A stretch of 46,808 nucleotides of DNA from contig CAYUYN010000002.1 of the NCBI GenBank assembly GCA_964449185.1, positions 1 to 46,808 on the forward strand, read 5' to 3'. The stretch is from an uncultured Anaerolineales bacterium (lineage in GTDB: Bacteria > Chloroflexota > Anaerolineae > Anaerolineales > UBA6663). Shown one piece after another: positions 23,904 through 38,377 of this stretch. How positions within the stretch are numbered: the stretch's first letter is position 1; each line of letters starts with the position of its first letter. The notes beneath the pieces are model-generated. The model did no database searches and was not told where the DNA came from. It saw only the letters and a list, made by a program, of their open reading frames with translations. Position numbers and translations under genes: made by a program.

Positions 23904-24722
23904 ATGTTTGATGCACATGTTCACCTCTGGCGCGCGGGCGATGAAGGCTTCAGCCCAGAGTTTGGGCCGCCGCCCGACCTGGAGGCCTCTGCGGAGCATC
24001 TCCTGATGCTGATGGACCAGAACGGGGTCGAGCGAGCGGCGCTCATCCAGCCCGGCTGCTATGGTTTTGATGCGAGCCTGCTGGCCGACCAAGTACGGCA
24101 GACGCCCGACCGCTTTGTGGGCCTGGGGATGGTGGATCCGCGCCAGCCCGACGTGGCCGACCGGCTGTCGTACTGGGTGGAGAGCCGCCACCTAGTGGGC
24201 ATGCGGGTGCTAGGCCGCTGGATCGACGCGGCCCATTTGCAGGACTTGTGGCGGCGGGCGGCTGAGCTGCAGGCCGCGCTGGCGTTTTTGACCGGCCCGA
24301 TCGACCTTGAGCCGCTGGAACAACTGATTAGCCGCCTGCCGGCGACACCGGTCATCATCGATCACCTGGCGCATCGCCGCCTGGACGACCGGGCGCACTG
24401 CCAACAACTCCTCAACCTGGCCCGGTATCCGCAGGTTTACGTCAAAGTGTCCGGCCTCTATGTGCTTTCGCGCCAACCGCACCCCCACGCCGATGCCGGC
24501 TGGCTCATCCAAGAGGTTATTCAGGCCTTTGGCGCGCAGCGGCTGATGTGGGCCACCGACTACCCGTATATCGTGGATACGGACGGCTACGGGAACTGCC
24601 TGGAGTGGTTTCACCACGTCCTGCCGCATACCACCCAGGCCGAGCGCGATTGGATCTGCGGCCAAACCGCGAACCGCCTCTGGCCGACGCCGGGCGGGGA
24701 CACGCCTCACCCCAACCCTTAG
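23904..24722 (+). CDS. Amidohydrolase_2-family metal-dependent hydrolase (sugar-lactonase-like)
   Basis: 272 aa. Motifs are FDAHVHLW (HxH), IIDHLA and LMWATDYPY. It sits directly upstream of an enolase-superfamily dehydratase, as in non-phosphorylative sugar-acid routes. Confidence 0.8.
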   Translation: MFDAHVHLWRAGDEGFSPEFGPPPDLEASAEHLLMLMDQNGVERAALIQPGCYGFDASLLADQVRQTPDRFVGLGMVDPRQPDVADRLSYWVESRHLVGMRVLGRWIDAAHLQDLWRRAAELQAALAFLTGPIDLEPLEQLISRLPATPVIIDHLAHRRLDDRAHCQQLLNLARYPQVYVKVSGLYVLSRQPHPHADAGWLIQEVIQAFGAQRLMWATDYPYIVDTDGYGNCLEWFHHVLPHTTQAERDWICGQTANRLWPTPGGDTPHPNP

Positions 24723-24735
24723 GAGCATACCCCCT

Positions 24736-25878
24736 GTGAAAATCGACAAGGTTGAAACCTTCTTAGTCGAAGCCGGCGCTCGCAACTGGCTCTTTACCAA
24801 GATTTATACCGACAAAGGCCTCACCGGGATTTCAGAGACCACCATCAAGCGCAAAGAGCGAACGCTGAAAGCCTCGGTGGAGGAGTTGACGCGCTACCTG
24901 ATTGGCAAAGACCCGACCTGTATCGAGGACCACCTCGAGAAAATGTATCGCGATGCCTTTTGGGTGGGCGGCACGATGCTCTCCTCGGCCATCAGCGCCG
25001 TTGAAGCCGCGCTGTGGGACATCCTCGGCAAGAGCGTGGGCCTGCCCGTCTACAAGCTGCTGGGCGGTCCCACGCGCGACAAGCTCCGCGTTTACTGCTG
25101 GATTGGCGCCGGCCGCGACGCCTCGCTGGCGGCCTGGCAAGAGGCCGGCCTGGCCGCCAAGGAAAAGGGCTTTACGGCGGTCAAGATCGGCATCTTGGGC
25201 GGCACCGCTTACGGCGGCGAGAAAGAGACGGAAGGCCTGTCGCCGGCCATTATCAAGACGGCGGTCAGCCGCCTAAGCGCCGTGCGCGAAGCCGTGGGTT
25301 GGGACTTTGATATTGCGATTGACCTGGGCGGACGGCTGAACGCCGCCAACGCGATCCGCTTGATCTCGGCGGTTGAAGATCTGGACCTGCTGTTCGTGGA
25401 AGAGCCGTTGCCGCCCGAGAATATCGACGCGCTGGCAACCGTCGCCCGGGCCGTGCGCACGCCCCTCGCCTCCGGCGAGCGGCTCAACACCAAATACGGC
25501 TATCGCCAGCTATTAGAGAAGCAGGCCGTCGCGGTGCTGCAGCCGGACATCTGCAATTGCGGCGGGATCATGGAAGGCAAAAAGATCGCGGCCATGGCCG
25601 AAGCCTGGTATGTGCCCGTTGCGCCCCACAACCCGAATGGCCCAGTGGCCACCGCCATGACGGCCCAGGTGGCGGCGTCGATCCCGAACTTCTTGATCAT
25701 GGAAACCGTGGGGGCCTTCAGCCCGGAGAAGGAGCGCCATGAGGAAATGGTGCTTGAAACCCTGAAGATCAAAAATGGCTACCTGGAGCTGCCTACCCGG
25801 CCGGGCCTCGGCGTCGAGCTGAACGACGAGGCCCTCGCTCGCCATCCGTTTGTAATGAGCGACGCGCGGCGCCAATGA
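24736..25878 (+). CDS. Enolase-superfamily (mandelate racemase/muconate lactonizing enzyme family) sugar-acid dehydratase-like
   Basis: 380 aa from a GTG start, with AGGAG 9 nt upstream. Metal-ligand contexts are IAIDLGGR, LFVEEPLPPEN and ASGERL, plus PHNPNGPVA. Paralog of 40294-41499. Confidence 0.85.
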   Translation: MKIDKVETFLVEAGARNWLFTKIYTDKGLTGISETTIKRKERTLKASVEELTRYLIGKDPTCIEDHLEKMYRDAFWVGGTMLSSAISAVEAALWDILGKSVGLPVYKLLGGPTRDKLRVYCWIGAGRDASLAAWQEAGLAAKEKGFTAVKIGILGGTAYGGEKETEGLSPAIIKTAVSRLSAVREAVGWDFDIAIDLGGRLNAANAIRLISAVEDLDLLFVEEPLPPENIDALATVARAVRTPLASGERLNTKYGYRQLLEKQAVAVLQPDICNCGGIMEGKKIAAMAEAWYVPVAPHNPNGPVATAMTAQVAASIPNFLIMETVGAFSPEKERHEEMVLETLKIKNGYLELPTRPGLGVELNDEALARHPFVMSDARRQ

Positions 25879-27272
25879 GCGCGCGCGGCGCGGCAGGTCC
25901 GGCGGCCACGCCCCGCCGGCGCATCGGTTGGCTCGCCGATTTGGAGACGCTGGCACATAACCCGGAGCGTCTGGCTCGGCTGCAAGACCAACTTGGCATT
26001 ACGACCGTCTGGCTCGAAAGCGGACGGTACCATACGGCGGGCTATCGCCTGTCGGAGGCGGCCTGGGCGTCGAGCCCGTTTCAGGACTGGCGTACCCAGC
26101 CAGGCCTGGCGCGGCACCGCCAGATCCGCCGCTTGCCGGAGACGTCCTTCCCGGTGCTGCCGGGCATCCTGGCCGGTGCCGATGAGGCTGACTTGCTGGC
26201 CGTCATAGACAATGCCGGCCGGCTCGGCATCGAGCTGTGGGGGCACCTGGGCTTTTGGAGTTACGGCGGTATGGTCTACCCCGACTTGGCGGTCCGTGAC
26301 CTGGCGCAGTGTGAAATCCCCAGTACCGAGGATCGTTGGGGCGCCTGTTTCTGCCCCAGCAAGGACGCCCTCAACGACTGGCTGGTGACGTGCGTCCGGG
26401 ACTGCGCGGCGCGTTACCCGCTCCAGGGGATGGAAGTGGATCATGCCCGCTATATCCCTCCACACAGCCTGCCCAACCTGCTGACGTGTGCCTGCCCCGA
26501 CTGCGCCCGCCAGGCGGCCGTCTGGGGCATTGACGCCGCCGGCCTGGCCCAGCACTTCCGGGCGGCGTTGGCACGGATGCAGGCTGCGCCGGCGGGCGAC
26601 ATCGCCGCGGCGCTGCAAACGGACGGTACGCTGATCGACGCCATGGATACCCTGGTGCACGAACAGGCGGCCAGCCGCTGGTTTACACTGCGCGCGCGCT
26701 ACCTCACGACGACACTCGAAAAAGCGGCGGTGGCCGCGCAACAGAGCGCCCCTCGTCCCTTTGATTTCGGCATTGACGTTCTGCCGCCCTCGGTGGCGCT
26801 GCTGACCGGGCATCACTATGCGGAGCTGGGCTGCCTGGATTACTTCACGGGCGGCTTCGGTTACATCGGCTGGGAGCGGGCCGGGGTGAGCACCGCGGTG
26901 GTATGGGCAAAATTTCTTCTGGCGGGCTGGCCCGAACTCGACGAGGCCTTCGTTATGGCACAACTCCTGCGGCTGGCGGGCTTGGCGGGCTTGCCGCTGG
27001 CCGAGCCGATGAGCGTGCTGGAAAAGCCGCCGGCGCTGCTGTTGGCCCAACTGGAAGCCCGTGAGATTGAACGCGCGGCGGCCATGCGCCCGGCCGGTAT
27101 GCCGGTCTATCCGCCGGTGAGCTTGCCGGCCATCGGCGCCGATGGCCTGGCGATCGTGAGCCGCGCGGTGGCCGAGCACGGCCTGGATGGGGTGATTGTG
27201 GCCGGCCTGGAAAACCTGACGCCAGACCAAGACCAGCGGGTGGCCGAGGCGCTGCGGCCCCTGGCCCAATGA
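25875..27272 (+). CDS. Hypothetical protein (465 aa), Cys-motif-containing, possibly glycosidase-like TIM barrel
   Basis: ATGA overlap with the upstream gene and GC3-rich codons. Contains CFCP and CACPDC motifs. Family not recognised. Confidence 0.6.
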   Translation: MSARGAAGPAATPRRRIGWLADLETLAHNPERLARLQDQLGITTVWLESGRYHTAGYRLSEAAWASSPFQDWRTQPGLARHRQIRRLPETSFPVLPGILAGADEADLLAVIDNAGRLGIELWGHLGFWSYGGMVYPDLAVRDLAQCEIPSTEDRWGACFCPSKDALNDWLVTCVRDCAARYPLQGMEVDHARYIPPHSLPNLLTCACPDCARQAAVWGIDAAGLAQHFRAALARMQAAPAGDIAAALQTDGTLIDAMDTLVHEQAASRWFTLRARYLTTTLEKAAVAAQQSAPRPFDFGIDVLPPSVALLTGHHYAELGCLDYFTGGFGYIGWERAGVSTAVVWAKFLLAGWPELDEAFVMAQLLRLAGLAGLPLAEPMSVLEKPPALLLAQLEAREIERAAAMRPAGMPVYPPVSLPAIGADGLAIVSRAVAEHGLDGVIVAGLENLTPDQDQRVAEALRPLAQ

Positions 27273-27290
27273 GATCGCGGAGACTTCATT

Positions 27291-28136
27291 ATGAAAGTTA
27301 TGGTGACGGGCAACCTGGGCTTTGTGGGTGTAGGCATGGTGAGCACCTTGCTGGAACATGGCTATACCGTGGTTGGTTTTGATCGGCAGCCGGCGCCCGA
27401 CCAGCCGGCGGCGCCCAATTTTCGACAGATCACGGGCGATATCACCAACCTCGAAGCCTTGCAAGCCGCCCTGGATGGCTGCACGGCGGTGGTCCACTCG
27501 GCCATCGGCACGCGGGTGCGGGATGTGGACGTGCTGGAGTATGGTTTGGCGCGGGAAAAGATTGACAATACCAATCTGCTGCCGTTCCGGATCAATGTGG
27601 ACGGGACGTACAACCTCTTTGAGGTGGCCCGGCAGATTGGTATCCGCCAGGTGGTAAACATCAGCAGCGCGGCGGTGGTCTACGATCACATTATTGATCG
27701 CAGCGGCCAGATCCAGGACTACCGCGTGACCGCCGACTCGCCGCCCAATTTCCGCAGCCACTACGGCCTGACGAAGTGTCTGCAAGAACAAATCGGCGAC
27801 TTCTATGCGCGTGAGCATGACTTCTCGGTGATTACTCTGCGGCCGTGGTGGGTGGTGGACGGCCCGGCGCACAAGAACCGGCTGGGCGTCGATTTGACGC
27901 TCGATGTGCACCCGCTGAGCCCGGCTGGCCTGTGCTGCCGCTCGGATGTGGGCGAAATGGTGCACCTGGCCTTGCTGCGTCCTGACATCCGGACGGATGT
28001 TTTCTATCCGGTCACCGGACCCAACAGCGAGCGTTATTTCGACATGGCCCATGCCGAGCAAGTCTTGGGTTGGCGCCCGCGCTATCGCTTTGAGGAACTG
28101 GCCCACACCTGGCAGGGGGCGCGCGCGGTCACATGA
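27291..28136 (+). CDS. NAD-dependent epimerase/dehydratase-family extended SDR
   Basis: MKVMVTGNLGFVG (GxxGxxG) and YGLTKCLQE (YxxxK). Shares RPWWVVDG with the next gene. Confidence 0.8.
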   Translation: MKVMVTGNLGFVGVGMVSTLLEHGYTVVGFDRQPAPDQPAAPNFRQITGDITNLEALQAALDGCTAVVHSAIGTRVRDVDVLEYGLAREKIDNTNLLPFRINVDGTYNLFEVARQIGIRQVVNISSAAVVYDHIIDRSGQIQDYRVTADSPPNFRSHYGLTKCLQEQIGDFYAREHDFSVITLRPWWVVDGPAHKNRLGVDLTLDVHPLSPAGLCCRSDVGEMVHLALLRPDIRTDVFYPVTGPNSERYFDMAHAEQVLGWRPRYRFEELAHTWQGARAVT

Positions 28137-28996
28137 AAGTCCTGGTGGCCGGCAGCCGGGGCTACTGCGGTCGGGGCGTGGTGCAGGCGCTGCGCCGGCA
28201 TGGCTGGCCGGTGGTTGGCTTTGATGTCCTGCCGCTCGAAACCCTGCCGGCCGACCCGGAGCATGTGGAGTTCAGCGGAGATATCGGCGATGTGGACTTC
28301 CTGGCGCGGGCTGTGGCCGGCTGTCAGGGTGTGATCAACGCCACCGTTTACCGCCCGAGTGACCCGCGTTTGCGGGCTGCTCTGGCACCAGGCAGCCCGC
28401 TGGAGACGGCCGATATTCTGCAGCAGCGGATCAGTGTGACTGGCACCTTTAACTTGCTGGAGGTGGCCTGGCAGAGCGGCGTGCGCCAGGCGGTGCTGCT
28501 CAGCAGCGGTCGGGTGGTCTGGGACCACTTTGTGCGGCGTGATCAGTCGGCGGTCGCGCCAGGCTGGCAGGCCACCGCTGAGACACCGTTGAACTACAGT
28601 GATGCGTATGGCCTGAGCAAGCACTTGCAGGAACTGGTGGGCCGGCACTTCGCCGCCGTGCACGGGATGGCGGTCACCATTTTCCGCCCGTGGTGGGTGG
28701 TCGATGGCGGCCTCGATCGCAACCGGATGGACGAGCCGCTGGCGGCGGACACGGTGCCGCTCTCGCCGGCGGGCATGGTGGACTACCGCGATCTGGGTGA
28801 GGCCTGCTACCTGGCGCTCTTACACCAACGCCCCGGCGCCGAAATTTACTATCCGGTCGCCGGCCCGGGCTGCGACGACCATTTTGATGCGGCCCGTCTG
28901 CGGCGCGACCTCGGCTGGCGGCCGGTCTATACGTTTGACCACCTGGCTCCACCTAATCTACCCCGGCCGATGTGCTCTGATGGAGGCCTGGTGTGA
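28133..28996 (+). CDS. NAD-dependent epimerase/dehydratase-family extended SDR (tandem paralog)
   Basis: MKVLVAGSRGYCG (GxxGxxG), YGLSKHLQE and RPWWVVDG. ATGA overlap with the previous gene. Confidence 0.8.
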   Translation: MKVLVAGSRGYCGRGVVQALRRHGWPVVGFDVLPLETLPADPEHVEFSGDIGDVDFLARAVAGCQGVINATVYRPSDPRLRAALAPGSPLETADILQQRISVTGTFNLLEVAWQSGVRQAVLLSSGRVVWDHFVRRDQSAVAPGWQATAETPLNYSDAYGLSKHLQELVGRHFAAVHGMAVTIFRPWWVVDGGLDRNRMDEPLAADTVPLSPAGMVDYRDLGEACYLALLHQRPGAEIYYPVAGPGCDDHFDAARLRRDLGWRPVYTFDHLAPPNLPRPMCSDGGLV

Positions 28997-31782
28997 TCAA
29001 GTACGACTACGAATATGATCTGATCAATCAGCCCTACCTCGCGGAGATCATCGACTTCACCAGCGGGTGGACGCACCAATCTTTCCGGGTGCCTACCTCA
29101 GCCCATCAACTCCAGGGCCTACGCATTAAGCTGAGCCGCCTGGGCCACCCGGGCCCGGTGGAAGTGCGGTTGGGACGATCACCGGGCAGCCAGGATCTCG
29201 CCCAGGGAACGATCGACCCGGAGGCCGTGCTGCCCGTGTTCGAACTGTGGACCGGGTTTGATTTTCCCCCAGTGCCCGTTCAGGCTGGCGAGATCTGTTT
29301 CCTCAGCCTGCGCGTCGCCAGCGGCCGGCAGCCGTTGGAGGCCTACCGATTGTACGGGCCGAATATTTACGACCATGTGGGTGGGCCCGAGAGCGTGCAG
29401 CTCCCGTACTTTTGGAATGAAAGTGTTTCGCAGGCCGACGATTTGCCCATCCCGCTGCCGGCCGACTACCGGGGCGCGGCTTACCCGAACTATCCCGACG
29501 GCGAGCGTCGCCGGGCGGATGGCAGCCTGACCTGGAGCCTCTCATTTCAAATCCTTACCGACGGCGATGCGCCGGAGGCCACGTCCGGGGCGCAGCCCTT
29601 TGAGTTTGCCCGGCAACTACTGGCCCCGCCGTTTACCGAGTGGGTGCTCCTGCGCGACGTCGAGGCGCAGCCTGGGCCGCAGACGGTAGTGATTGACGAC
29701 CGCTGGGCCTTGGTCACCGATGCCGCCGAGCCCTCGCCCGTGATGGAACAAGCGCTCATCGAGCTGAGGACCTTCTTCCAACGCGTGCTCGACGTGCCGC
29801 TAGCCGAGGCGGGCGGCACAGCGACTATCCAGCTCGAGATTCGTCCCAAGGCTGACCTTCCGCCGGGCGAGGAAAGTTTTCTGGCCCGCATCCAACCGGA
29901 CGGCATCCGTCTGAGCGCCCGGCATGAACGTGGCCTCTTGCGCGCCGTTTACTGGCTAGAGGATAGCCTGTTGCTGCAGCGGGCGCCCTTCCTCGAACCG
30001 GGTGAGTATCGGGTGCAGGCGCGCTACAGCCCGCGGATGGTGCCCGGCATCTACCCCGCGCCCGCCTATGCTCAACTGTTCGATGGCGAGCTGTGGACGG
30101 CCGGCTACATGTGGCGCCTGTCCCGCGCCGGCTACAACGCCATCTACCTGCAGGCTAACATGGAGGATTTTGTCGAGGCCTCCGCCATCTTCCCGGAGAT
30201 GAATGACCCGCGGGCCGCGGCGGCGATTGAGCGCCTGCGCCGCATCACCGAGCTCGGCGCGGCTTATGGCGTGGACGTGTACGTCGATCTGAAAACCGGC
30301 TACCGCCGGAAGTTTTCGGAGGCGGTCTACGAGCGCCGACCGGAGGTGCGGTCGTATGCGCGCTTTGGCAATTACCCCTGCAGCGGGCAGGAGAGCGTGC
30401 TGGAATTCTATACCGAGACCGTCACGCACGTCTTTCAACGAGCGGAGAAGCTCAAGGGCCTGATCGTGATTTACGACACGGAAGGCTTCTTCTCCTGCTT
30501 TATTCACAACCAGCAGCGCCAGTGCCCGACCTGCAAAGATCAGCCGGTGGTTACGCTGGCCACCCGGCTGTTTGAGGCGCTACTGAAGGGCATCCGCGCG
30601 GGCAATACGGCCGGGGAGCTGATCCTGTGGTCGTATTTCTGCGACGAGCCCTGGAACTATGACGTCATCCGCGCCATGCCCGCGGAGGCCAGCCTGATGG
30701 CTTGCTTTAGCCAGTTTGGCGAGCTCGACCGCTTTGGGGTTCGGGTGCGCACGGACGACTATTCGATCTGCTCGGAAAAACCCAGCGCCTATTTCCTTAA
30801 GCTGCAAGCGCTGGCCAAGGAAAAACAACTGCGCTTTCTGTGCAAAACCGAAGACACGTTTGGCCAGGAATTCGTCTCGACGCCGTACACGCCCTGCCTC
30901 ACCCAGCACCAGCGGCGGTGGGACGAAGTGAGGGCTTCCGGCGTGGACGGCTTCTTATCCCAGTATGTACACTTAGGCTTTATGCCGGGACCGTGCGCGG
31001 ACCTGATGCGGCAAAACGCGCTACTGGTCGAGAATGAGACTCAGCCGCAAACGCTGTCGGCCGAGACCAAGCTGCGCCGCGTGGCGACACTCCACGCCGG
31101 CGCGGCGGCGGCAGAGCTGGTCATGCTGGCCTGGGAGGCGTTTAGCCGCGCGCTGCGTGATTACTTCCCGTACACCTGGGGTGTCTGCCGCTATCCGGGC
31201 CCACTGCAGGCGGCCCCGGCCCAACCGTTCTACCTGGACCCGGCGCGGCGCGTGCCCAGGTCCCGCGCGCGCGGCTATGTCAAGGACTTGAACTGGACGG
31301 GCATTGACCCGCGCTTTCTGGTTGACCCCGACCAGACGTGGGACGCAGCCCTGGTATCCAGGTGTCTGCAGGGTTTCGTCAGCGACTACGCGGAAGGGCT
31401 GCGATGGCTGGAGGCGGCGCGGCGCATCTGCGCGCCGCCCTATCAGGCGGTGGTGGACCAGGCCCTGCGGATTGCCCGCACCCAAAGGCTGCAAGCGCAG
31501 TCCTTGATGCATCTGATCGAATTCTTCCAACTGCGGGAGGCCGACGCAATAGCCGGCTCGGACGCACGCACCGGCGCGCTGATCGCCGTGTGTGAGGCCG
31601 AACGCGAGACTGCCGCTGCCGCCCTGGCCATTTGCCGCCAGGATTCGGTCATCGGTTTTACGTGCGAGGGCGCGGGCAACGTGCGCGGTGGCGCCTTCAC
31701 CCCGGTCGCCATCGAGCAAAAGCTCACGGGGCTGGCCGGGACCCTCGCCGCGCTGTGCCAGCGGCGCCCTGGAAGCCGCTAA
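28993..31782 (+). CDS. Large hypothetical protein (929 aa), family not recognised
   Basis: GTG start overlapping the upstream TGA (GTGA). Long ORF with consistent GC3-rich codon usage. Its central region (GYNAIYLQANMEDF...VDVYVDLKTGY) suggests a beta/alpha barrel. A CPTC motif is present. No signal peptide. Confidence 0.6.
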   Translation: MIKYDYEYDLINQPYLAEIIDFTSGWTHQSFRVPTSAHQLQGLRIKLSRLGHPGPVEVRLGRSPGSQDLAQGTIDPEAVLPVFELWTGFDFPPVPVQAGEICFLSLRVASGRQPLEAYRLYGPNIYDHVGGPESVQLPYFWNESVSQADDLPIPLPADYRGAAYPNYPDGERRRADGSLTWSLSFQILTDGDAPEATSGAQPFEFARQLLAPPFTEWVLLRDVEAQPGPQTVVIDDRWALVTDAAEPSPVMEQALIELRTFFQRVLDVPLAEAGGTATIQLEIRPKADLPPGEESFLARIQPDGIRLSARHERGLLRAVYWLEDSLLLQRAPFLEPGEYRVQARYSPRMVPGIYPAPAYAQLFDGELWTAGYMWRLSRAGYNAIYLQANMEDFVEASAIFPEMNDPRAAAAIERLRRITELGAAYGVDVYVDLKTGYRRKFSEAVYERRPEVRSYARFGNYPCSGQESVLEFYTETVTHVFQRAEKLKGLIVIYDTEGFFSCFIHNQQRQCPTCKDQPVVTLATRLFEALLKGIRAGNTAGELILWSYFCDEPWNYDVIRAMPAEASLMACFSQFGELDRFGVRVRTDDYSICSEKPSAYFLKLQALAKEKQLRFLCKTEDTFGQEFVSTPYTPCLTQHQRRWDEVRASGVDGFLSQYVHLGFMPGPCADLMRQNALLVENETQPQTLSAETKLRRVATLHAGAAAAELVMLAWEAFSRALRDYFPYTWGVCRYPGPLQAAPAQPFYLDPARRVPRSRARGYVKDLNWTGIDPRFLVDPDQTWDAALVSRCLQGFVSDYAEGLRWLEAARRICAPPYQAVVDQALRIARTQRLQAQSLMHLIEFFQLREADAIAGSDARTGALIAVCEAERETAAAALAICRQDSVIGFTCEGAGNVRGGAFTPVAIEQKLTGLAGTLAALCQRRPGSR

Positions 31783-31784
31783 GC

Positions 31785-32690
31785 ATGGCCACCGACCTGA
31801 AGATTGGGCTCGTCGGCCTGGATACCTCGCACTGTGTGGCATTCACCCAAATCCTACAGGGTGAGAATGCCCCTTACCACGTGGCGGGTGGGCGCGTGAC
31901 CGGCCTCTTTGTGGGCGGCTCCCCGGCGCTGGCCGTGTCGCGCGAGCGCGTACAGGGCTTCAGCCAGGAATTACAGACGGGTTATGGTCTCCCGGTCTAC
32001 GACAGCCTGGCCGAGCTGGCGCAGGCCGTGGATGCGCTGATGCTGCTCAGCGGCGATGGCCGTCAGCACCTGGAACAATTCCAGTCCATGGCCGTGGGCA
32101 AGCCGGTGTTTATCGATAAGCCGCTGGCCACTACGACGACCGAGGCCCGCGCCATCCTGCAAGTGGCGGCGCAAACTGGTACTCCGGTGATGTCGTGTTC
32201 CTCGCTGCGCTTCGCGGATGGCCTGGCCGACCCCCTGCCGCCGGGCGAGCAGTTGTTGGCCTGCGAGACCTTTGGGCCGGCAACCGTTCTGCCCGACTTT
32301 CCGGGATTGTTCTGGTACGGTGTCCATGGGATTGACAGCTTGTTTGCCTGGATGGGGGCCGGCTGCCAGCGGGTGCGGTGCCTGACGCACGCGTCCATGG
32401 AGGTCGTGGTGGGTGAGTGGCCAGAGCGCCGCCTGGGCGTGTTCCGGGGCACTCGATTGGCGACGAGCGCCTTTGGCGGCGTGCTGCACACCACCGAGCG
32501 GGTGCATGGCCGCCAGGCGCGCAATGACCCACCATTTTACTTTCGGCTGATGCAGCACGTGCAGGCGTTCTTCCTTAGCCGCCGCTCGCCGGTATCGGCC
32601 GAGGAAATGTTTGCAGTGATTGCCTTTATTGAGGCCGCGCACGAGAGCGCCCAACGGGGTGGGGCGGCGGTTGAGCTGGCTCTGCTATAA
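31785..32690 (+). CDS. Gfo/Idh/MocA-like oxidoreductase (divergent)
   Basis: Trimmed to ATG 31785 (MATDLKIGLVGLDTSHCVAF), 2 nt after the upstream TAA. It has a Rossmann-like N-terminus and FIDKPLA in place of the canonical EKP. Confidence 0.7.
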   Translation: MATDLKIGLVGLDTSHCVAFTQILQGENAPYHVAGGRVTGLFVGGSPALAVSRERVQGFSQELQTGYGLPVYDSLAELAQAVDALMLLSGDGRQHLEQFQSMAVGKPVFIDKPLATTTTEARAILQVAAQTGTPVMSCSSLRFADGLADPLPPGEQLLACETFGPATVLPDFPGLFWYGVHGIDSLFAWMGAGCQRVRCLTHASMEVVVGEWPERRLGVFRGTRLATSAFGGVLHTTERVHGRQARNDPPFYFRLMQHVQAFFLSRRSPVSAEEMFAVIAFIEAAHESAQRGGAAVELALL

Positions 32691-32757: not shown

Positions 32758-34404
32758 ATGAAACGGGCACCCCGTCCGAGGGTGGTGGTGCAGCCGCAAG
32801 TTTACCAGGGCCTGCAACGCGGCATCGACCAGATGGTCGGGGCCGTTCGTCCCACGCTCGGTCCTTTGCCGCGCCTGGTGGCGATCGAAGCGAATCCGCG
32901 CAGCAGAATGCCGGAACTGGTTGACAATGCCGGGCTGATCATGCGCCGGATCGTGGCGCTGCCGGAGCGCGACGCGGACATGGGCGCGATGTTTGTGCGC
33001 CAGATGGTGTGGCAGGTGCACGAGAAGGTCGGCGACGGCGGCGCGACCGCAGCCGTTTTGTTTCATTCCATTTTTCGCCAGGGCATCAAGCATGTCGCTG
33101 CCGGGGGGAATGCGATGCGGCTGCGGACCTTCCTAGAACAGGGGCGGCAGCTCATCCTCGATGCGCTGGAGGTACAGACGCAGCCGGTACGGGGCAAGCA
33201 CCAGCTCGGGCAGGTGGCGGAGACCTTGTGCCAGGACACGGCTTTGGCCCAAATGCTGGGCGAGATCTTCGACATTATTGGCGAATATGGCCGGCTCGAG
33301 GTTCGCCCCGGACGCGGCCGTGCGCTGGAACGTGAATACCTGGAGGGCGCCTACTGGCGCAGCAGCCTGTGCTCGCGTGAGCTGCTTAGCGACCGCACGC
33401 GGATGCGCAGCGAACTGTCGCTGGCCGCGATCTTGATTAGTGACTTGACGCTGGAAGAGCCTCGCGATCTGATCCCGGTACTGGAAGCGGCGCAGCAGGG
33501 CGGGGCGCAGTCCTTGCTGGTGCTGGCCCAAAAAATCTCCCCTAGTGTTATTGCACTGCTGCTGTCGGCGAACCGCGAACCCGACAAATTCCTCGCCGTC
33601 GCGCATCTCACTCCCGGGGGCACGCAAGCGCAGCAGACGGCCTATATGGCTGACCTGGCGGTGCTGACGGGCGGACGCACACTCTGCCGGGCGACCGGAG
33701 AAACCCTGCACAGCTTCCGGCCGGCCGACCTGGGGCACGCTCGCCGCGCTTGGGCCGAGCCGGAGCACTTTGGCATCGTCGGCGGTCGGGCCGATCCCCG
33801 CCACCTGCGGGCGCATGTCGCCCACCTGCGCGCGGCGGCCCAGGCGGACCAGGACGCGTCCGCCCTCAGCGAGCTGCGGCAGCGTATCGGGATGCTGATG
33901 GGCGGCACCGCCAGTCTGATGATCGGCGGGGCGAATGAAACCGAAATCAACACGCGCATCGGGCGCGCCGAACGGGCCGCCCAGGCGCTGCGGGCGATTG
34001 TCCGCGAGGGCGTTGTCCCGGGCGGCGGCGCAGCGCTGCTAGGGTGCCGGGCGCTTTTGAAGCGCCAACTCGCCATAAGTCGTGATCTGGATGAGCGCGC
34101 CGCCTCTCAGATTCTGGGGTCTGCCGTAGAAGTGCCCTTTCGGACGATTCTGGCCAATGCGGGTTATGAGCCTGGCCCGGCCCTGGCGGAGATAGACCGC
34201 GCCAGCGCCGGCCCCGAGGGGCAGTGCGGCTTTGGCTTTGATGTGCGCAGCGGCCGGGTGGTGGACATGTTCGCGGCCGGCATTACCGATGGCGCGGGCG
34301 TGGTCATGGCCGCCGTGCATGGCGCCGTCGCGAGCGCGGCACTGGCGCTTACCACCGACGTTCTGGTACAGCACCGTAAGCCTGAACAGCGGGTGAATCC
34401 ATAG
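32758..34404 (+). CDS. Divergent Cpn60/GroEL-family chaperonin-like protein (no GroES partner in the window, no GGM tail)
   Basis: Trimmed to ATG 32758 (MKRAPRPRVVVQ), with GGAGAG 10 nt upstream. It aligns collinearly with GroEL: TLGP, VGDGGATAAVL (GroEL AGDGTTTATVL), GGTASLMIGGANETE, REGVVPGGGAALL (GroEL [13 protein letters not shown]) and GITDGAGV (GroEL GILDPTKV). Confidence 0.8.
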   Translation: MKRAPRPRVVVQPQVYQGLQRGIDQMVGAVRPTLGPLPRLVAIEANPRSRMPELVDNAGLIMRRIVALPERDADMGAMFVRQMVWQVHEKVGDGGATAAVLFHSIFRQGIKHVAAGGNAMRLRTFLEQGRQLILDALEVQTQPVRGKHQLGQVAETLCQDTALAQMLGEIFDIIGEYGRLEVRPGRGRALEREYLEGAYWRSSLCSRELLSDRTRMRSELSLAAILISDLTLEEPRDLIPVLEAAQQGGAQSLLVLAQKISPSVIALLLSANREPDKFLAVAHLTPGGTQAQQTAYMADLAVLTGGRTLCRATGETLHSFRPADLGHARRAWAEPEHFGIVGGRADPRHLRAHVAHLRAAAQADQDASALSELRQRIGMLMGGTASLMIGGANETEINTRIGRAERAAQALRAIVREGVVPGGGAALLGCRALLKRQLAISRDLDERAASQILGSAVEVPFRTILANAGYEPGPALAEIDRASAGPEGQCGFGFDVRSGRVVDMFAAGITDGAGVVMAAVHGAVASAALALTTDVLVQHRKPEQRVNP

Positions 34405-34410
34405 GCGCGC

Positions 34411-35346
34411 ATGACGACCCAAGCACCGGTGCAGGATGTTCCGTTCGCCATCGCCGCCTCGCCGCACTTCCGGCAAGATGGTGTGGCCTTCTGCGCCCGC
34501 GCCTCCGGACTGTACCGGACAGTCGATGGCGGCCGCACCTGGGTCCCGGCGCTGACCTCGCTGAACTTACGCGAGCCGGTGCCCACGCTGGCCCTGGCTT
34601 TCGCGCCGAGCTTTTCCGCCACGGGCACGGTGTTTGCCGGCACGCCGGGCGCCGTGCTGCGCTCGACGGACGGGGGAGAGACATGGAAGGTGCTGCTGCT
34701 GCCTTTTCGGCCGGCCATGGTGTCGGCGTTGGTTGTTTCGCCGAACTTCGAGGAAGATGGGGTGGTGCTGGCGGGCACGGTCGAGGACGGCGTCTTTCGC
34801 TCGGGTAACCGGGGGGAACATTGGGCGGCCTGGAACTTCGGCTTGCTGGACCTGAGTATACTGTGCCTGGCCCGGTCGCCCCACTATGCGCAGGACGAAA
34901 CCCTGTTGGCCGGCGTGGACAGCGGCATTTTTCGCAGCACTAATGGCGGCCGCGCGTGGCGGGAGGTGCCCTTCCCACTGGAATGGGCACCGGTGATTAG
35001 CCTGGCGCTGGCGCCGAATTATGTGCAGACGGGCATCATTCTGGCCGGCACCGAGGCCAACGGTGTGTTTATCAGCCGCGATGATGGCGAGACTTGGGCG
35101 CCGCTGGGCGCGGGCCAACTGTCAGGGCCCATCAACACGCTTGTGCTCGCGCCGGACTTTCCAAAGCGGCCCCACATTCTGGCCCTGGCCGGGACCAGCC
35201 TACGGATCTCGCGCGACGGGGGCCTAGCGTGGATTGCCTGGAGGAAGCGCGCCGAAGGCCCGTACCTGTGCGTCGCGGCCGGTGAGGGTATTCATGTGGG
35301 CGCCCCACTATTGGTGAGCCTGGACACGGGGATGGCGCGGATCTAA
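34411..35346 (+). CDS. BNR/Asp-box repeat beta-propeller protein (sialidase/Ycf48-like fold), no signal peptide
   Basis: 311 aa with six spaced Asp-box-like motifs: TVDGGRTW, STDGGETW, SGNRGEHW, STNGGRAW, SRDDGETW, SRDGGLAW. It starts 6 nt after the chaperonin-like stop. Confidence 0.75.
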   Translation: MTTQAPVQDVPFAIAASPHFRQDGVAFCARASGLYRTVDGGRTWVPALTSLNLREPVPTLALAFAPSFSATGTVFAGTPGAVLRSTDGGETWKVLLLPFRPAMVSALVVSPNFEEDGVVLAGTVEDGVFRSGNRGEHWAAWNFGLLDLSILCLARSPHYAQDETLLAGVDSGIFRSTNGGRAWREVPFPLEWAPVISLALAPNYVQTGIILAGTEANGVFISRDDGETWAPLGAGQLSGPINTLVLAPDFPKRPHILALAGTSLRISRDGGLAWIAWRKRAEGPYLCVAAGEGIHVGAPLLVSLDTGMARI

Positions 35347-35491: not shown

Positions 35492-35519
35492 TTGACGACC
35501 GTCAGATCGGGTGTATGAT
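35492..35519 (+). promoter_or_regulatory. Candidate sigma-70-type promoter of the ROK regulator gene
   Basis: TTGACG (35492-35497), a 16-nt spacer, then TATGAT (35514-35519). It lies ~43 nt upstream of ATG 35562 in a locally AT-richer intergenic region. Confidence 0.4.
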
Positions 35520-35561: not shown

Positions 35562-36869
35562 ATGAAACGCCAAACTGATCGAAGCATCTCCTTTATACGC
35601 GATATCAGCCGGTCCGAAGTGTTGGATGTGGTGCGCCGTGAGCGGCTCATCTCCCGCAGCGAATTGTGCGAGGCAGTCTCGGTCAGTCGCGCCACGGTAT
35701 CGGGCATTGTCGCCGACCTGCTGGCGATCGGTCTGCTCGAAGAAGTCGGCGTGGGTCCCTCCACCGGTGGGCGCCGACCCATCAAGCTTTCGTACCGCCC
35801 GGCCAGCCGCAAGGCCGTGGGCATTGTCATGTTCAACAACCGCATTCAGGCGGCGCTGACGGATATGGAGGGGGAGGCTCTCAATTACTTGGAGATGCCC
35901 CTGGAAGGGCTCTCGGCCGAGGCGATGTTGTCCACCATGAAATCGGCCGCCCAGCAGATTCTGCGCGGGGTTGCGCCGGAGGAGTTGCTGGGCATTGGAG
36001 TGGGGGCGCCGGGCATTGTGGATTTTGAGAGCGGCATCATCGAAATCAGCATCGGCACCCCCTGGCTCGAAGGCGGCATCCCAGTCAAAACGTATCTCGC
36101 CGAGGCGCTCGGGCTGCCGGTCTACGTCGCCAACCGCAGCCGGGTGGCCGCGTTGGGCGAGAATCTCGCTGGCGTGGGGCGCAACGTCTCCAACCTGATC
36201 TACTTCGTCCTTGACCAGGGCATCGTCGCGGGCATCGTGATTAACGGCGATCTGTACCTCGGCTCGGGCTCAGCGGCCGGCGAGATCGGGCACGTCTCCA
36301 TTGAGCCCGACGGGCCTTTGTGCCGCTGCGGCAATCGCGGCTGTTTGCAGATGTATGCTTCTGAAGAGGCCATCCTGGCGCGGGCCCGCGCCGTGGCGCG
36401 CGAGGAAGTGACCAGCCTGCTCTGGCAGAACACCGATGGGCGCGTGGAACGGTTGACGACCGACTTGGTGATTGATGCGGCGCGGCAGGGCGATCCTTCG
36501 GCCCTGGCCGTGATGAACGAGGTCGGCGCGAAGGTGGGGTTCGCCATTTCGACGCTGATCAACTTGTTCGATCCGGAGATGGTGGTGTTGGGCGGGGCGA
36601 TTGGGACGAAGGCGGGCGACTTGCTGCTGAAGCCGGCCACGCGCGAAGCGCAGGTGCGCGCCCTGCCGCGGGCCTTCCAAAAAACTCGCATTGTGACGGG
36701 CACCCTGGGTACGAATGCGATTGCGATTGGGGCCGCCGTGCTGGCGATCAAGAACACGCCGATCAGTATGATTTTCGAAGGACGCCCGGCAACCCTAGAC
36801 GGGCCCCCGGCCGGGAATGGCAGCCTGGCCGCCGAAGCGGCGCCAGTGGCCCCCGTGGCGGTGAGTTAA
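35562..36869 (+). CDS. ROK-family transcriptional regulator (N-terminal winged HTH plus sugar-kinase-like domain)
   Basis: The HTH region is ISRSELCEAVSVSRATVSGIVADLLAIGLLEE. The ROK signature with Zn motif is GEIGHVSIEPDGPLCRCGNRGCLQMYAS. Confidence 0.85.
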   Translation: MKRQTDRSISFIRDISRSEVLDVVRRERLISRSELCEAVSVSRATVSGIVADLLAIGLLEEVGVGPSTGGRRPIKLSYRPASRKAVGIVMFNNRIQAALTDMEGEALNYLEMPLEGLSAEAMLSTMKSAAQQILRGVAPEELLGIGVGAPGIVDFESGIIEISIGTPWLEGGIPVKTYLAEALGLPVYVANRSRVAALGENLAGVGRNVSNLIYFVLDQGIVAGIVINGDLYLGSGSAAGEIGHVSIEPDGPLCRCGNRGCLQMYASEEAILARARAVAREEVTSLLWQNTDGRVERLTTDLVIDAARQGDPSALAVMNEVGAKVGFAISTLINLFDPEMVVLGGAIGTKAGDLLLKPATREAQVRALPRAFQKTRIVTGTLGTNAIAIGAAVLAIKNTPISMIFEGRPATLDGPPAGNGSLAAEAAPVAPVAVS

Positions 36870-37599: not shown

Positions 37600-37627
37600 C
37601 ATTTCCACACGCATGCAGGAGGCTGTC

Positions 37628-38377
37628 ATGACCGTACACCACGCACTCAAGCTGCCGGGCCGCTTTTACCGTGCCTATCCTCCCGAGCAGCCGCTGGGTT
37701 ACGCCACCGACGCCGTCGAGCTTGGGCTGCACGAAACCATGTTCCTGCTGGTGGATGTCTACGGTAAGGGCTTTGATGCCGACCAGGCACTGGGCCAGGC
37801 CGATGCGTTTTACACGCGCGCCGTGGAGGCGGCCCGCGACACGGTGATTACCCGCATTCTGCCGGCCAAGCAAGCAGCCAAAGCAGCGGGCTTGCCCGTC
37901 ATTTATCTCACCAACTATCTCTCGCCCGGGTTGAACCACCAGCACGAATGGCGCAACCTCTCCCTGCGCACGCTGAATATCGATGTCCTGGAAGCGTGGA
38001 CCGAGCCCAATGACGCCTTGGCCTTTTCTGAGATCATTGCGCCCACGGCCGGCGAGTATCTGATCAAAAAGCAGTTTTACAGCGGCTTCTTCGAGACCCA
38101 CCTGGACTCGCTTCTGCGTAGCCTGGGTGCGCGCAACCTGGTGACGGTGGGCTATGACAGCCGCATCTGTCTGGCCGCCACGATAACCGACGCCATGTAC
38201 CGGAATTACCGCGTCATCACGCTACGCGATTGCATCGGCACGAACGAAGAGGCCGAGACGAAAGAGGGCGGCTGGGCGAACTTTCTGGCCGTGCGCTATA
38301 TCGAGACGAATGTGGGCTATACGGCCACCGCCGCGGAGTGGATTGAGGCGTGCCAGGCTCTGGCAGGCGGGGACTGA
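37628..38377 (+). CDS. Isochorismatase-family cysteine hydrolase (paralog of 2713-3399)
   Basis: ATG 37628 (MTVHHALKL) is preferred because AGGAGG lies 5 nt upstream. An alternative ATG is at 37613. Triad contexts are FLLVDVYG, KKQFYSGF and GYDSRICL. Confidence 0.8.
   Translation: MTVHHALKLPGRFYRAYPPEQPLGYATDAVELGLHETMFLLVDVYGKGFDADQALGQADAFYTRAVEAARDTVITRILPAKQAAKAAGLPVIYLTNYLSPGLNHQHEWRNLSLRTLNIDVLEAWTEPNDALAFSEIIAPTAGEYLIKKQFYSGFFETHLDSLLRSLGARNLVTVGYDSRICLAATITDAMYRNYRVITLRDCIGTNEEAETKEGGWANFLAVRYIETNVGYTATAAEWIEACQALAGGD

Follow-up and report, generated by a model that had tools for sequence, protein, structure and literature searches.

A divergent GroEL-like gene and its beta-propeller neighbour in sugar operons of Chloroflexota genomes

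This article concerns a pair of adjacent genes on contig CAYUYN010000002.1 of an uncultured Anaerolineales bacterium (UBA6663; assembly GCA_964449185.1). The whole stretch of DNA that was analysed, referred to below as the window, is 46,808 nucleotides (nt) long. The first gene of the pair encodes a GroEL-like protein of 548 amino acids (aa), and the second, which follows closely on the same strand, encodes a beta-propeller. An initial annotation, made by eye from the sequence, had described the first protein as a GroEL paralogue with apparently disabled ATPase residues; here, we follow it up with profile, structure and gene-neighbourhood comparisons.

The gene pair, its family and its operons

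Pfam Cpn60_TCP1 (PF00118) covers residues 29-539 of the 548-aa protein with 116.7 bits, above the gathering cutoff of 34.3 (E 1.5e-33), and in phmmer searches solved GroEL structures align with it from end to end (E 9e-69 to ~1e-54, ~27-31% identity). Both results bear out the full-length alignment with GroEL in the initial annotation, which had named the Cpn60_TCP1 search as a check. All NCBIfam GroEL models match too, at 289-319 bits, and every one falls under its curated cutoff: the best-scoring subfamily model reaches 318.8 bits against 352, and the canonical GroEL equivalog TIGR02348 reaches 289 against 582.1. The models for chlamydial GroEL2 and GroEL3 (NF038370 and NF038369) score 87.2 and 99 bits against a cutoff of 600, and those for the thermosome and CCT do not exceed ~40 bits and cover no more than the C-terminal ~150 residues. 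By these scores the protein sides with GroEL and not with the thermosome or CCT, and all of its Foldseek and PDB matches are group I chaperonins.

Searching for homologues brought up many relatives of ~542 aa with 52-60% identity to the window protein (E ~1e-175 to 1e-194). The named ones come from Anaerolineae, Herpetosiphonaceae and other Chloroflexota; cultured isolates were sought, and all named matches are metagenome-assembled genomes (MAGs). Their public labels range from "chaperonin GroEL", "60 kDa chaperonin 1" and "TCP-1/cpn60 chaperonin family protein" to "hypothetical protein". Scanning species-representative genomes gave 435 loci, the best 80 of which were used for the neighbourhood work; 78 of these 80 carry Chloroflexota labels and one (L020) bears no phylum label. 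The sole assignment to another phylum among them, Candidatus Zixiibacteriota, is that of L085 (DASRZI010000085.1), an operon with the typical order of substrate-binding protein, two permeases and chaperonin-like gene; it could be a case of mis-binning or of horizontal transfer. The family is also deep: when 50% representatives were searched exhaustively, each of the top 150 scored >268 bits, and solved canonical GroELs score at most 236.

Over 85 family sequences, 91 alignment columns are conserved at ≥93%, and the window copy departs from five of them (F11V, L84V, T95G, G345A and H538Q). The family median is one departure, and the window copy ranks 7th of the 85. Judged by these figures, it is somewhat divergent and clearly not a pseudogene.

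Some long relatives deserve a word of their own. We looked among them for a "Rosetta-stone" fusion of chaperonin and propeller and found none. In P0263 (783 aa), a complete Cpn60 domain is preceded by an N-terminal extension of ~245 aa that matches nothing in Pfam, and P0213 (1078 aa) and P0245 (1081 aa) are tandem pairs of canonical-type GroEL modules in one polypeptide, with GDGTTT, mostly Asp398, 37-45% identity to E. coli GroEL and no GGM tail. The latter two are either covalently fused chaperonin dimers or read-throughs in gene calling, and they lie outside the family studied here.

The downstream protein has neither a hydrophobic nor a basic signal at its N-terminus. Its AlphaFold2 (AF2) model is confident (predicted local distance difference test, pLDDT, 92.7; predicted template modelling score, pTM, 0.90) and has seven four-stranded blades, six of them with Asp-boxes; the seventh, C-terminal, has none. 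The six Asp-boxes, the 6-nt spacing and the missing signal of the initial annotation stand; the blades number seven, not six. Foldseek neighbours are seven-bladed propellers in general (TM-score 0.64-0.75, 11-18% identity), among them GH74 xyloglucanase domains, a beta'-COP WD40 domain, the BT4673 sensor and Ycf48. The NCBIfam model for Ycf48/HCF136 (NF010237) gives 37.1 bits against a cutoff of 326, Pfam PSII_BNR (PF14870) matches residues 21-140 only (33.1 bits), and an NCBIfam BNR "glycosylhydrolase" family matches weakly (88.5 bits, cutoff 175). Given the low identity of the Foldseek matches and the score of the Ycf48 model, the protein is a generic BNR-type seven-bladed propeller outside the characterised families. 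Its own family is ~314 aa long and goes by the JGI name "PSII stability/assembly factor-like"; acidic and polar residues that are invariant in it outside the Asp-boxes are E125-D126, N142-D147, D162-E163-T164 and R181-E185.

The pairing of the two genes, whose conservation the initial annotation had proposed to check, is strongly conserved in both directions. From the chaperonin side, 76 of the 80 species genomes have enough downstream sequence, and in 62 of them (82%) the propeller is the next gene on that strand, the median gap measured by tblastn being 42 nt; it is nearby in 2/76 and absent from the flank in 12/76. From the propeller side, a chaperonin-like gene lies immediately upstream at 59 of 67 metagenomic loci (88%) that have at least 300 nt of upstream sequence. 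In the first five independent contexts the propeller was directly downstream every time (5/5), and all other neighbours differed. The spacing in the window makes translational coupling of the two genes likely.

The divergence of the two genes is also correlated. At the 21 loci that carry the chaperonin-like gene, the propeller and both ABC permeases, the pairwise distances of chaperonin and propeller correlate at r = 0.93 (0.91 as a partial correlation controlling for a permease), those of chaperonin and permease at 0.71-0.74, of propeller and permease at 0.54-0.57 and of the two permeases at 0.99, all of these values being inflated by shared phylogeny. The chaperonin-propeller value fits co-inheritance of the two as a unit. 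Because a rough neighbour-joining tree puts the members that lack a propeller in a number of small clades, each set among paired members, the pair would appear to be ancestral, with secondary losses of the propeller.

Some individual loci should be noted here. An apparent propeller remnant of 51 residues at 9798-9900 of L001 (CP070818.1, called a complete genome) is an artefact, in that the open reading frame (ORF) enters a run of Ns and the gene is left uncalled. At L088 and L089, propeller homologues with no adjacent chaperonin-like gene stand beside genes with Gfo/Idh/MocA and Fucose_iso_C domains, and that of L089 also stands beside 2-oxoacid dehydrogenase E1/E2 genes; the Fucose_iso_C family recurs near the paired locus L013.

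The initial annotation had placed the gene inside a sugar-catabolic island, and that description holds for the window. Upstream, the co-directional run consists in order of Amidohydro_2, an enolase-superfamily dehydratase, a 465-aa protein with no assignment, two NAD epimerases, a 929-aa protein with no assignment and Gfo/Idh/MocA. The pair closes this run; the ROK gene and more catabolic genes lie beyond, and the window also encodes a sugar ABC transporter on the opposite strand. Elsewhere, the surrounding genes vary by locus and the embedding in sugar operons recurs. A common order is substrate-binding protein, permease, permease, chaperonin-like gene, propeller, Zn-dependent alcohol dehydrogenase (ADH), xylose-isomerase-like TIM barrel, FGGY kinase and class II aldolase; other recurring contexts are sulfatase, chaperonin-like gene, propeller, LacI and creatininase, or a divergent LacI regulator directly upstream of the pair. 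At 28 of the 80 loci the chaperonin-like gene is immediately preceded by an ABC permease gene, and at 37 there is one within the flank; LacI regulators flank the pair at ~15. Where the propeller is missing, the chaperonin-like gene still follows the permeases, and Zn-ADH, FGGY kinase or GH4 genes come next.

At six of the propeller-less loci (L060, L063, L065, L070, L072 and L076), the Zn-dependent ADH follows directly, and the Pfam name of its N-terminal domain is "GroES-like". This is probably a coincidence of operon order after loss of the propeller.

A groES partner and control by CIRCE (controlling inverted repeat of chaperone expression) are typical, though not strictly defining, features of canonical GroEL, and neither was found here. 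As the initial annotation had said, there is no groES in the window (best tblastn E 0.28), nor did tblastn find a second GroEL in it. The 87 family loci gave no GroES match with E < 0.1, and no CIRCE-like site was found upstream of the 87 family genes, which removes heat-shock regulation of this kind as a candidate. A promoter and terminator scan gave no terminator above background. A role in defence was also considered and set aside, as PADLOC models match neither the chaperonin-like protein nor the propeller.

Changed and retained residues

Residues are numbered after the E. coli GroEL sequence, which was checked to be identical to PDB 4pkn_G. Equivalences with the window protein come from MAFFT alignments and an hhalign profile alignment, which agree; residue counts refer to an alignment of 88 mainly Chloroflexota relatives, and ring contacts to the 85 sequences used above. 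The positions of all features are collected in Table 1.

None of the canonical D87-G-T-T-T91 phosphate loop, Asp52/Asp398 or the Gly-Met-rich tail is present in the window protein. The initial annotation had read the loop as DGGAT, the equivalent of Asp398 as Arg, Asp52 as lost and the GGM repeats as absent, and both alignment methods confirm the three internal changes; the Thr-Thr-Thr of the loop is not restored by rigorous alignment. In MAFFT and hhalign, T50-K51-D52-G53 pairs with V55-D56-N57-A58, followed by a one-residue insertion, which puts N57 at Asp52. The phmmer register is off by one residue in the 51-53 region, and still no method gives Asp at 52.

Most of these changes belong to the family at large. 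Position 398 is Arg in 78 of the relatives, His in 4, Gln in 3 and Glu, Lys or Tyr in 1 each, and never Asp. Ala stands at position 90 in 86/88 and Asp at position 51 in 87/88, and position 479, Asn in GroEL, is Asp in all 88; position 52 varies (Asn 37, Asp 36, Ser 11). The only catalogued change peculiar to the window copy is T89 to Gly, a position that is Thr in 83/88 and Gly solely here. A GGM tail was found in none of the window protein, the 88 relatives and the 124 near-full-length 50% representatives, the usual C-terminus of the latter being a VLVHHRxPExxxxP-like motif; in the window protein, the family-specific ending VLVQHRKPEQRVNP takes the place of the tail. As far as these alignments tell, the substitutions are traits of the family rather than the decay of one gene. 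Its divergence from canonical GroEL looks graded, since a few of the most distant 50% representatives still have Asp398 or the GYLSPYF motif. We also considered K51D and D398R as a compensating swap of charges and dropped the idea; the coupling is not strict, in that position 51 can be T, S, N, E or Q in 50% representatives that have Arg398.

The nucleotide pocket is retained. TLGP (T30-L31-G32-P33) is invariant save one P33A, D87-G88 save one G88A and G414-G416 save two G415S, and D495 is Asp in 87/88. At the ring contacts, the inter-ring residue R452 is kept in 80/85, position 461 is Asp or Glu, position 105 is basic, position 109 is Ala or Ser, and R36 and V38 are kept; the strands of the equatorial sheet are still hydrophobic (VVF at the N-terminus, VLV at the C-terminus). 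Several apical salt-bridge residues of GroEL allostery (R197, K207, E255 and E257) are lost across the family.

In the apical domain, the initial annotation had aligned SSLCSREL with RGYLSPYF and concluded that the binding residues were gone. The alignment holds; the loss was overstated. Y199 to Leu and F204 to Leu leave hydrophobic residues in place (the family has Leu, Val, Ile or Ala at 199 and Met or Leu at 204), and the helix H/I groove positions 234, 237, 259 and 263 are hydrophobic in the family, so that Tyr203 is the only apical hydrophobic among those examined to have turned polar. Apical binding is, to judge from these residues, altered and not abolished.

From what is kept and what is lost, ring assembly and nucleotide binding are probably preserved, and GroEL-type hydrolysis and allostery probably are not. 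In E. coli GroEL, D398A leaves ~2% of the wild-type ATPase (PMC3813556). The term "disabled ATPase" would carry such mutant data over to the present family by analogy.

Table 1. Features of the window (coordinates within the 46,808-nt stretch)
Feature	Position	Strand	Basis
Divergent GroEL-like (group I chaperonin) paralogue, 548 aa, intact ORF	32758..34404	+	Pfam, NCBIfam, solved-GroEL matches
PELVDNAG, equivalent to GroEL P47-V54 (TKDG region); K51 to D, D52 to N	32911..32934	+	MAFFT, hhalign
Phosphate loop GDGGAT, residues 92-97 (GroEL GDGTTT; family consensus GDGTAT)	33031..33048	+	MAFFT, hhalign
SSLCSREL, equivalent to GroEL RGYLSPYF; Y199 to L, Y203 to E, F204 to L	33361..33384	+	MAFFT, hhalign
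E405-R406, equivalent to GroEL E397-D398; catalytic Asp replaced by Arg406 (33973-33975)	33970..33975	+	MAFFT, hhalign
C-terminus VLVQHRKPEQRVNP, family-specific motif in place of GGM tail	34360..34401	+	Alignment
6-nt spacer GCGCGC between chaperonin-like stop TAG (34402-34404) and propeller ATG (34411)	34405..34410	+	Sequence
Cytoplasmic seven-bladed BNR/Asp-box beta-propeller, 311 aa	34411..35346	+	Pfam BNR, Sortilin-Vps10, PSII_BNR; AF2; Foldseek
Most conserved propeller patch (WNFGLLD, DET, STNGGRAWRE), blades 3-4	34831..34965	+	Invariant in propeller family alignment
Co-directional, tightly spaced sugar/sugar-acid catabolic genes upstream of the pair	23904..32690	+	Pfam, ORF calls
ROK-family regulator or kinase, N-terminal helix-turn-helix; promoter-like site before it at 35492-35519	35562..36869	+	Pfam, promoter scan
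Unmatched ORF, 929 aa	28993-31782	+	No Pfam match at E <= 0.01
Unmatched ORF, 465 aa	25875-27272	+	No Pfam match at E <= 1e-5
Unmatched ORF, 559 aa	12830-14512	-	No Pfam match at E <= 1e-5
Unmatched ORF, 803 aa	14509-16923	-	No Pfam match at E <= 1e-5
Unmatched ORF, 736 aa	16841-19054	-	No Pfam match at E <= 1e-5
FG-GAP repeat protein, 1104 aa	5689-9006	-	
ORF, 401 aa	36896-38101	-	
Isochorismatase-family protein	37613-38377	+	Pfam, E 1e-20

Readings of the pair and comparison with known systems

Scores below the GroEL cutoffs, the absence of a GGM tail from every member, the absence of CIRCE and the sugar-operon setting support the earlier view, drawn from sequence, that this is not a housekeeping GroEL. 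None of the findings that the initial annotation had named as refuting it was seen. The initial annotation had offered three roles for it, namely a non-hydrolysing scaffold or cage, a dedicated assembly factor for the propeller, or half of an uncharacterised two-gene system, and the adjacency found from both sides makes the last of these the best supported. The evidence supports placing the chaperonin-like gene in a conserved two-gene module and, so far as gene order can indicate, supports expression of that module with sugar-utilisation genes.

The reading that we prefer, at about even odds (a probability of roughly 0.5), is a GroES-independent ring that would bind ATP with slow or no hydrolysis and work with the propeller in sugar operons. 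Because ATP hydrolysis would be very slow or nil, the ring would serve as a holdase or assembly platform and not as a cycling foldase. The apical groove would be its contact with the propeller, an obligate partner that would be either adaptor or principal client, and the pair, inherited and probably translated together, would stabilise or assemble a component of the co-expressed sugar-utilisation machinery. We infer ring assembly, ATP binding without hydrolysis, the physical interaction and the physiological role alike from the residues and gene order described above.

Several observations weigh against this reading. Because ~16% of the chaperonin-like genes have no adjacent propeller, and ~12% of the propellers have no adjacent chaperonin-like gene, as two long contigs also show, the partnership is not absolute in gene order. 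The effect of shared phylogeny on the distance correlations has already been mentioned, and since Chloroflexota are rich in sugar genes in general, the context signal may in part be background. The pocket could be conserved for structural reasons rather than for nucleotide binding. Finally, AF2 gave a moderate model for the chaperonin-like protein (pLDDT 69, with the N-terminal 94 residues <50), and the model's global TM-score against GroEL is just 0.35-0.48 in Foldseek; it is therefore too weak for residue-level or conformational inference, including the geometry of Arg406 and Asp56 in the pocket.

How else might the pair be explained? The tight adjacency, short spacing and co-varying distances would also be expected of a dedicated client and its chaperone, the GroEL-like protein being a specialised foldase solely for the adjacent propeller with residual or alternative ATPase chemistry. 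Eukaryotic CCT/TRiC is required for folding WD40 propellers, and the gene of a dedicated chaperone often lies beside that of its client. However, at least 12 species genomes keep the chaperonin-like gene after ABC permeases with no propeller within 6 kb; the gene persists in sugar operons on its own, and a role confined to folding the propeller is therefore disfavoured. That the catalytic Asp is replaced throughout the family also speaks against a foldase that cycles, and the propeller's own role in sugar operons would be left unexplained. We consider this account unlikely, if the strongest competitor. A little less likely again is a complex with no folding role, in which the two proteins form a stable hetero-oligomer that takes part in carbohydrate uptake or catabolism as an enzyme, sugar binder or regulator, and the GroEL-like part serves as a pseudo-ATPase scaffold or nucleotide sensor. 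The steady embedding in sugar operons, directly after permeases or beside LacI regulators, speaks for it, as do the invariant acidic/polar patch of the propeller beyond its Asp-boxes, the GH74 domains among the best Foldseek matches and the weak "glycosylhydrolase" match. Yet GH74 activity needs a cleft between two propellers, and there is a single 311-aa propeller here with no established membership of a catalytic family; the co-encoded ADH, isomerase, kinase and aldolase already form a complete pathway, and the apical groove and ring contacts are still those of a chaperonin.

A bolder version of the ring has one seven-bladed propeller capping or plugging a heptamer by pseudo-sevenfold symmetry, in place of GroES. 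The seven blades, the retained ring-forming residues, the absence of GroES from every locus examined, the hydrophobic apical groove and the invariant hydrophobic propeller loop WNFGLLD can all be cited for it, but the idea is purely geometric speculation, the loop occurs at one blade junction only, and the propeller surface is not sevenfold-repetitive in sequence. We regard as a long shot both this lid and the fuller proposal built on it, a heptameric, non-hydrolysing, ATP-binding ring with Arg for the catalytic Asp and a propeller lid or adaptor replacing GroES, dedicated to the sugar-uptake machinery of Chloroflexota. Least probable by far is that the gene is simply the housekeeping GroEL of a lineage that has diverged, or a paralogue in decay whose neighbour is there by coincidence. 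It is true that public annotation often names the relatives "chaperonin GroEL" and that groEL commonly occurs with no groES beside it (in 770 of 4861 genomes; PMC5406781). Against this stand scores below every curated GroEL cutoff, catalytic and tail features absent across the family, intact ORFs with 91 highly conserved columns, and an adjacency of 82-88% that persists across unrelated contexts.

Returning to the GroES-independent ring, it is useful to set the pair beside systems that are already known. With E. coli GroEL/GroES the protein shares a colinear three-domain Cpn60 architecture, the TLGP/GDG/GGG/D495 pocket, inter-ring residues of the R452/E461 type and a hydrophobic helix H/I groove. 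It differs in its ~27% identity, in D398 to Arg, T90 to Ala, K51 to Asp and a variable D52, and, as a family, in lacking the GGM tail, groES, CIRCE and several of the allostery salt-bridge residues and in being paired with a propeller in sugar operons.

Chlamydial GroEL2 and GroEL3 have degenerate ATP-site residues too, and we know of no propeller partner or sugar-operon context for them. They are, likewise, divergent stand-alone GroEL paralogues away from groES (PMC5904260). They belong, however, to another family, by the 87-99 bits against 600 given above, and to another phylum. Actinobacterial non-GGM paralogues, such as mycobacterial Cpn60.1/GroEL1, retain the catalytic Asp residues and GDGTTT, with tails that are His-rich or pattern-free, and to our knowledge they have no conserved propeller neighbour. 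They resemble the present family in being second chaperonins whose C-terminal tail is atypical and whose role is specialised and non-essential (PMC11978752; PMC10952152).

CCT/TRiC and its WD40 clients likewise tie a chaperonin to a seven-bladed propeller, which is a functional analogy only; it belongs to the other chaperonin group, as the model scores indicate. CCT also differs in hydrolysing ATP actively, in carrying its own lid and in serving many clients. On the propeller side, Ycf48/HCF136, a photosystem II (PSII) assembly factor that acts by binding other proteins, is a seven-bladed BNR-type protein of ~310 aa (TM-score 0.64-0.68) to which the partial PSII_BNR match points. The AF2 model shares this fold, which is common to many unrelated propellers, and the window propeller differs in its 17-18% identity and lack of a signal sequence. 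A PSII role is not indicated, because the propellers sit in sugar operons of Chloroflexota MAGs. GH74 xyloglucanases give the best Foldseek E-values (6e-13) and have Asp-box seven-bladed domains; most are secreted. In them two tandem propellers form the catalytic cleft of a protein of ~700-750 aa, whereas here there is one cytoplasmic propeller with 17-18% identity, a TM-score of 0.31-0.36 normalised to the target and coverage of half the target chain.

Our literature search found no account of this Chloroflexota GroEL-like clade or of a chaperonin-propeller pairing, and apparently the family, large as it is, has not been described before. A review of atypical type I chaperonins places multiple copies in Actinobacteria, Firmicutes, Cyanobacteria, Chlamydiae and alpha-Proteobacteria, and Chloroflexi are not listed (PMC5904260); bacteria with several chaperonins are reported always to retain one GGM paralogue (PMC11978752). 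GroEL is among the best-studied molecular machines, and its known extra copies are mostly near-canonical paralogues with altered tails. The present clade is set apart by its spread over hundreds of species-level genomes, by the systematic change of Asp398 to Arg with pocket, ring contacts and groove kept, and by the loss of GroES, the gain of a fixed propeller partner and the location in sugar operons. If the mechanism that we propose is true, it would be a natural group I chaperonin repurposed as a non-cycling, partner-specific device, and a bacterial parallel to the relationship of eukaryotic CCT with propellers. Please note that the label "chaperonin GroEL" on family members is misleading, and could distort both cpn60-based taxonomic profiling and metabolic reconstructions of Chloroflexota.

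Other genes of the window

Five large ORFs of the sugar island, of 929, 465, 559, 803 and 736 aa, have no Pfam match at the thresholds in Table 1 and are candidates for undescribed carbohydrate-active or transport-associated proteins. The 1104-aa protein has FG-GAP repeats and weak matches to the propeller domains of lambda-carrageenase and rhamnogalacturonan lyase; a 590-aa GDSL-family protein adjoins it, which suggests a polysaccharide-processing cluster. Two ORFs beyond the ROK gene overlap on opposite strands. One encodes the isochorismatase-family protein, and the other, of 401 aa, has a partly membrane-like look; perhaps only the part of it outside the overlap is real.

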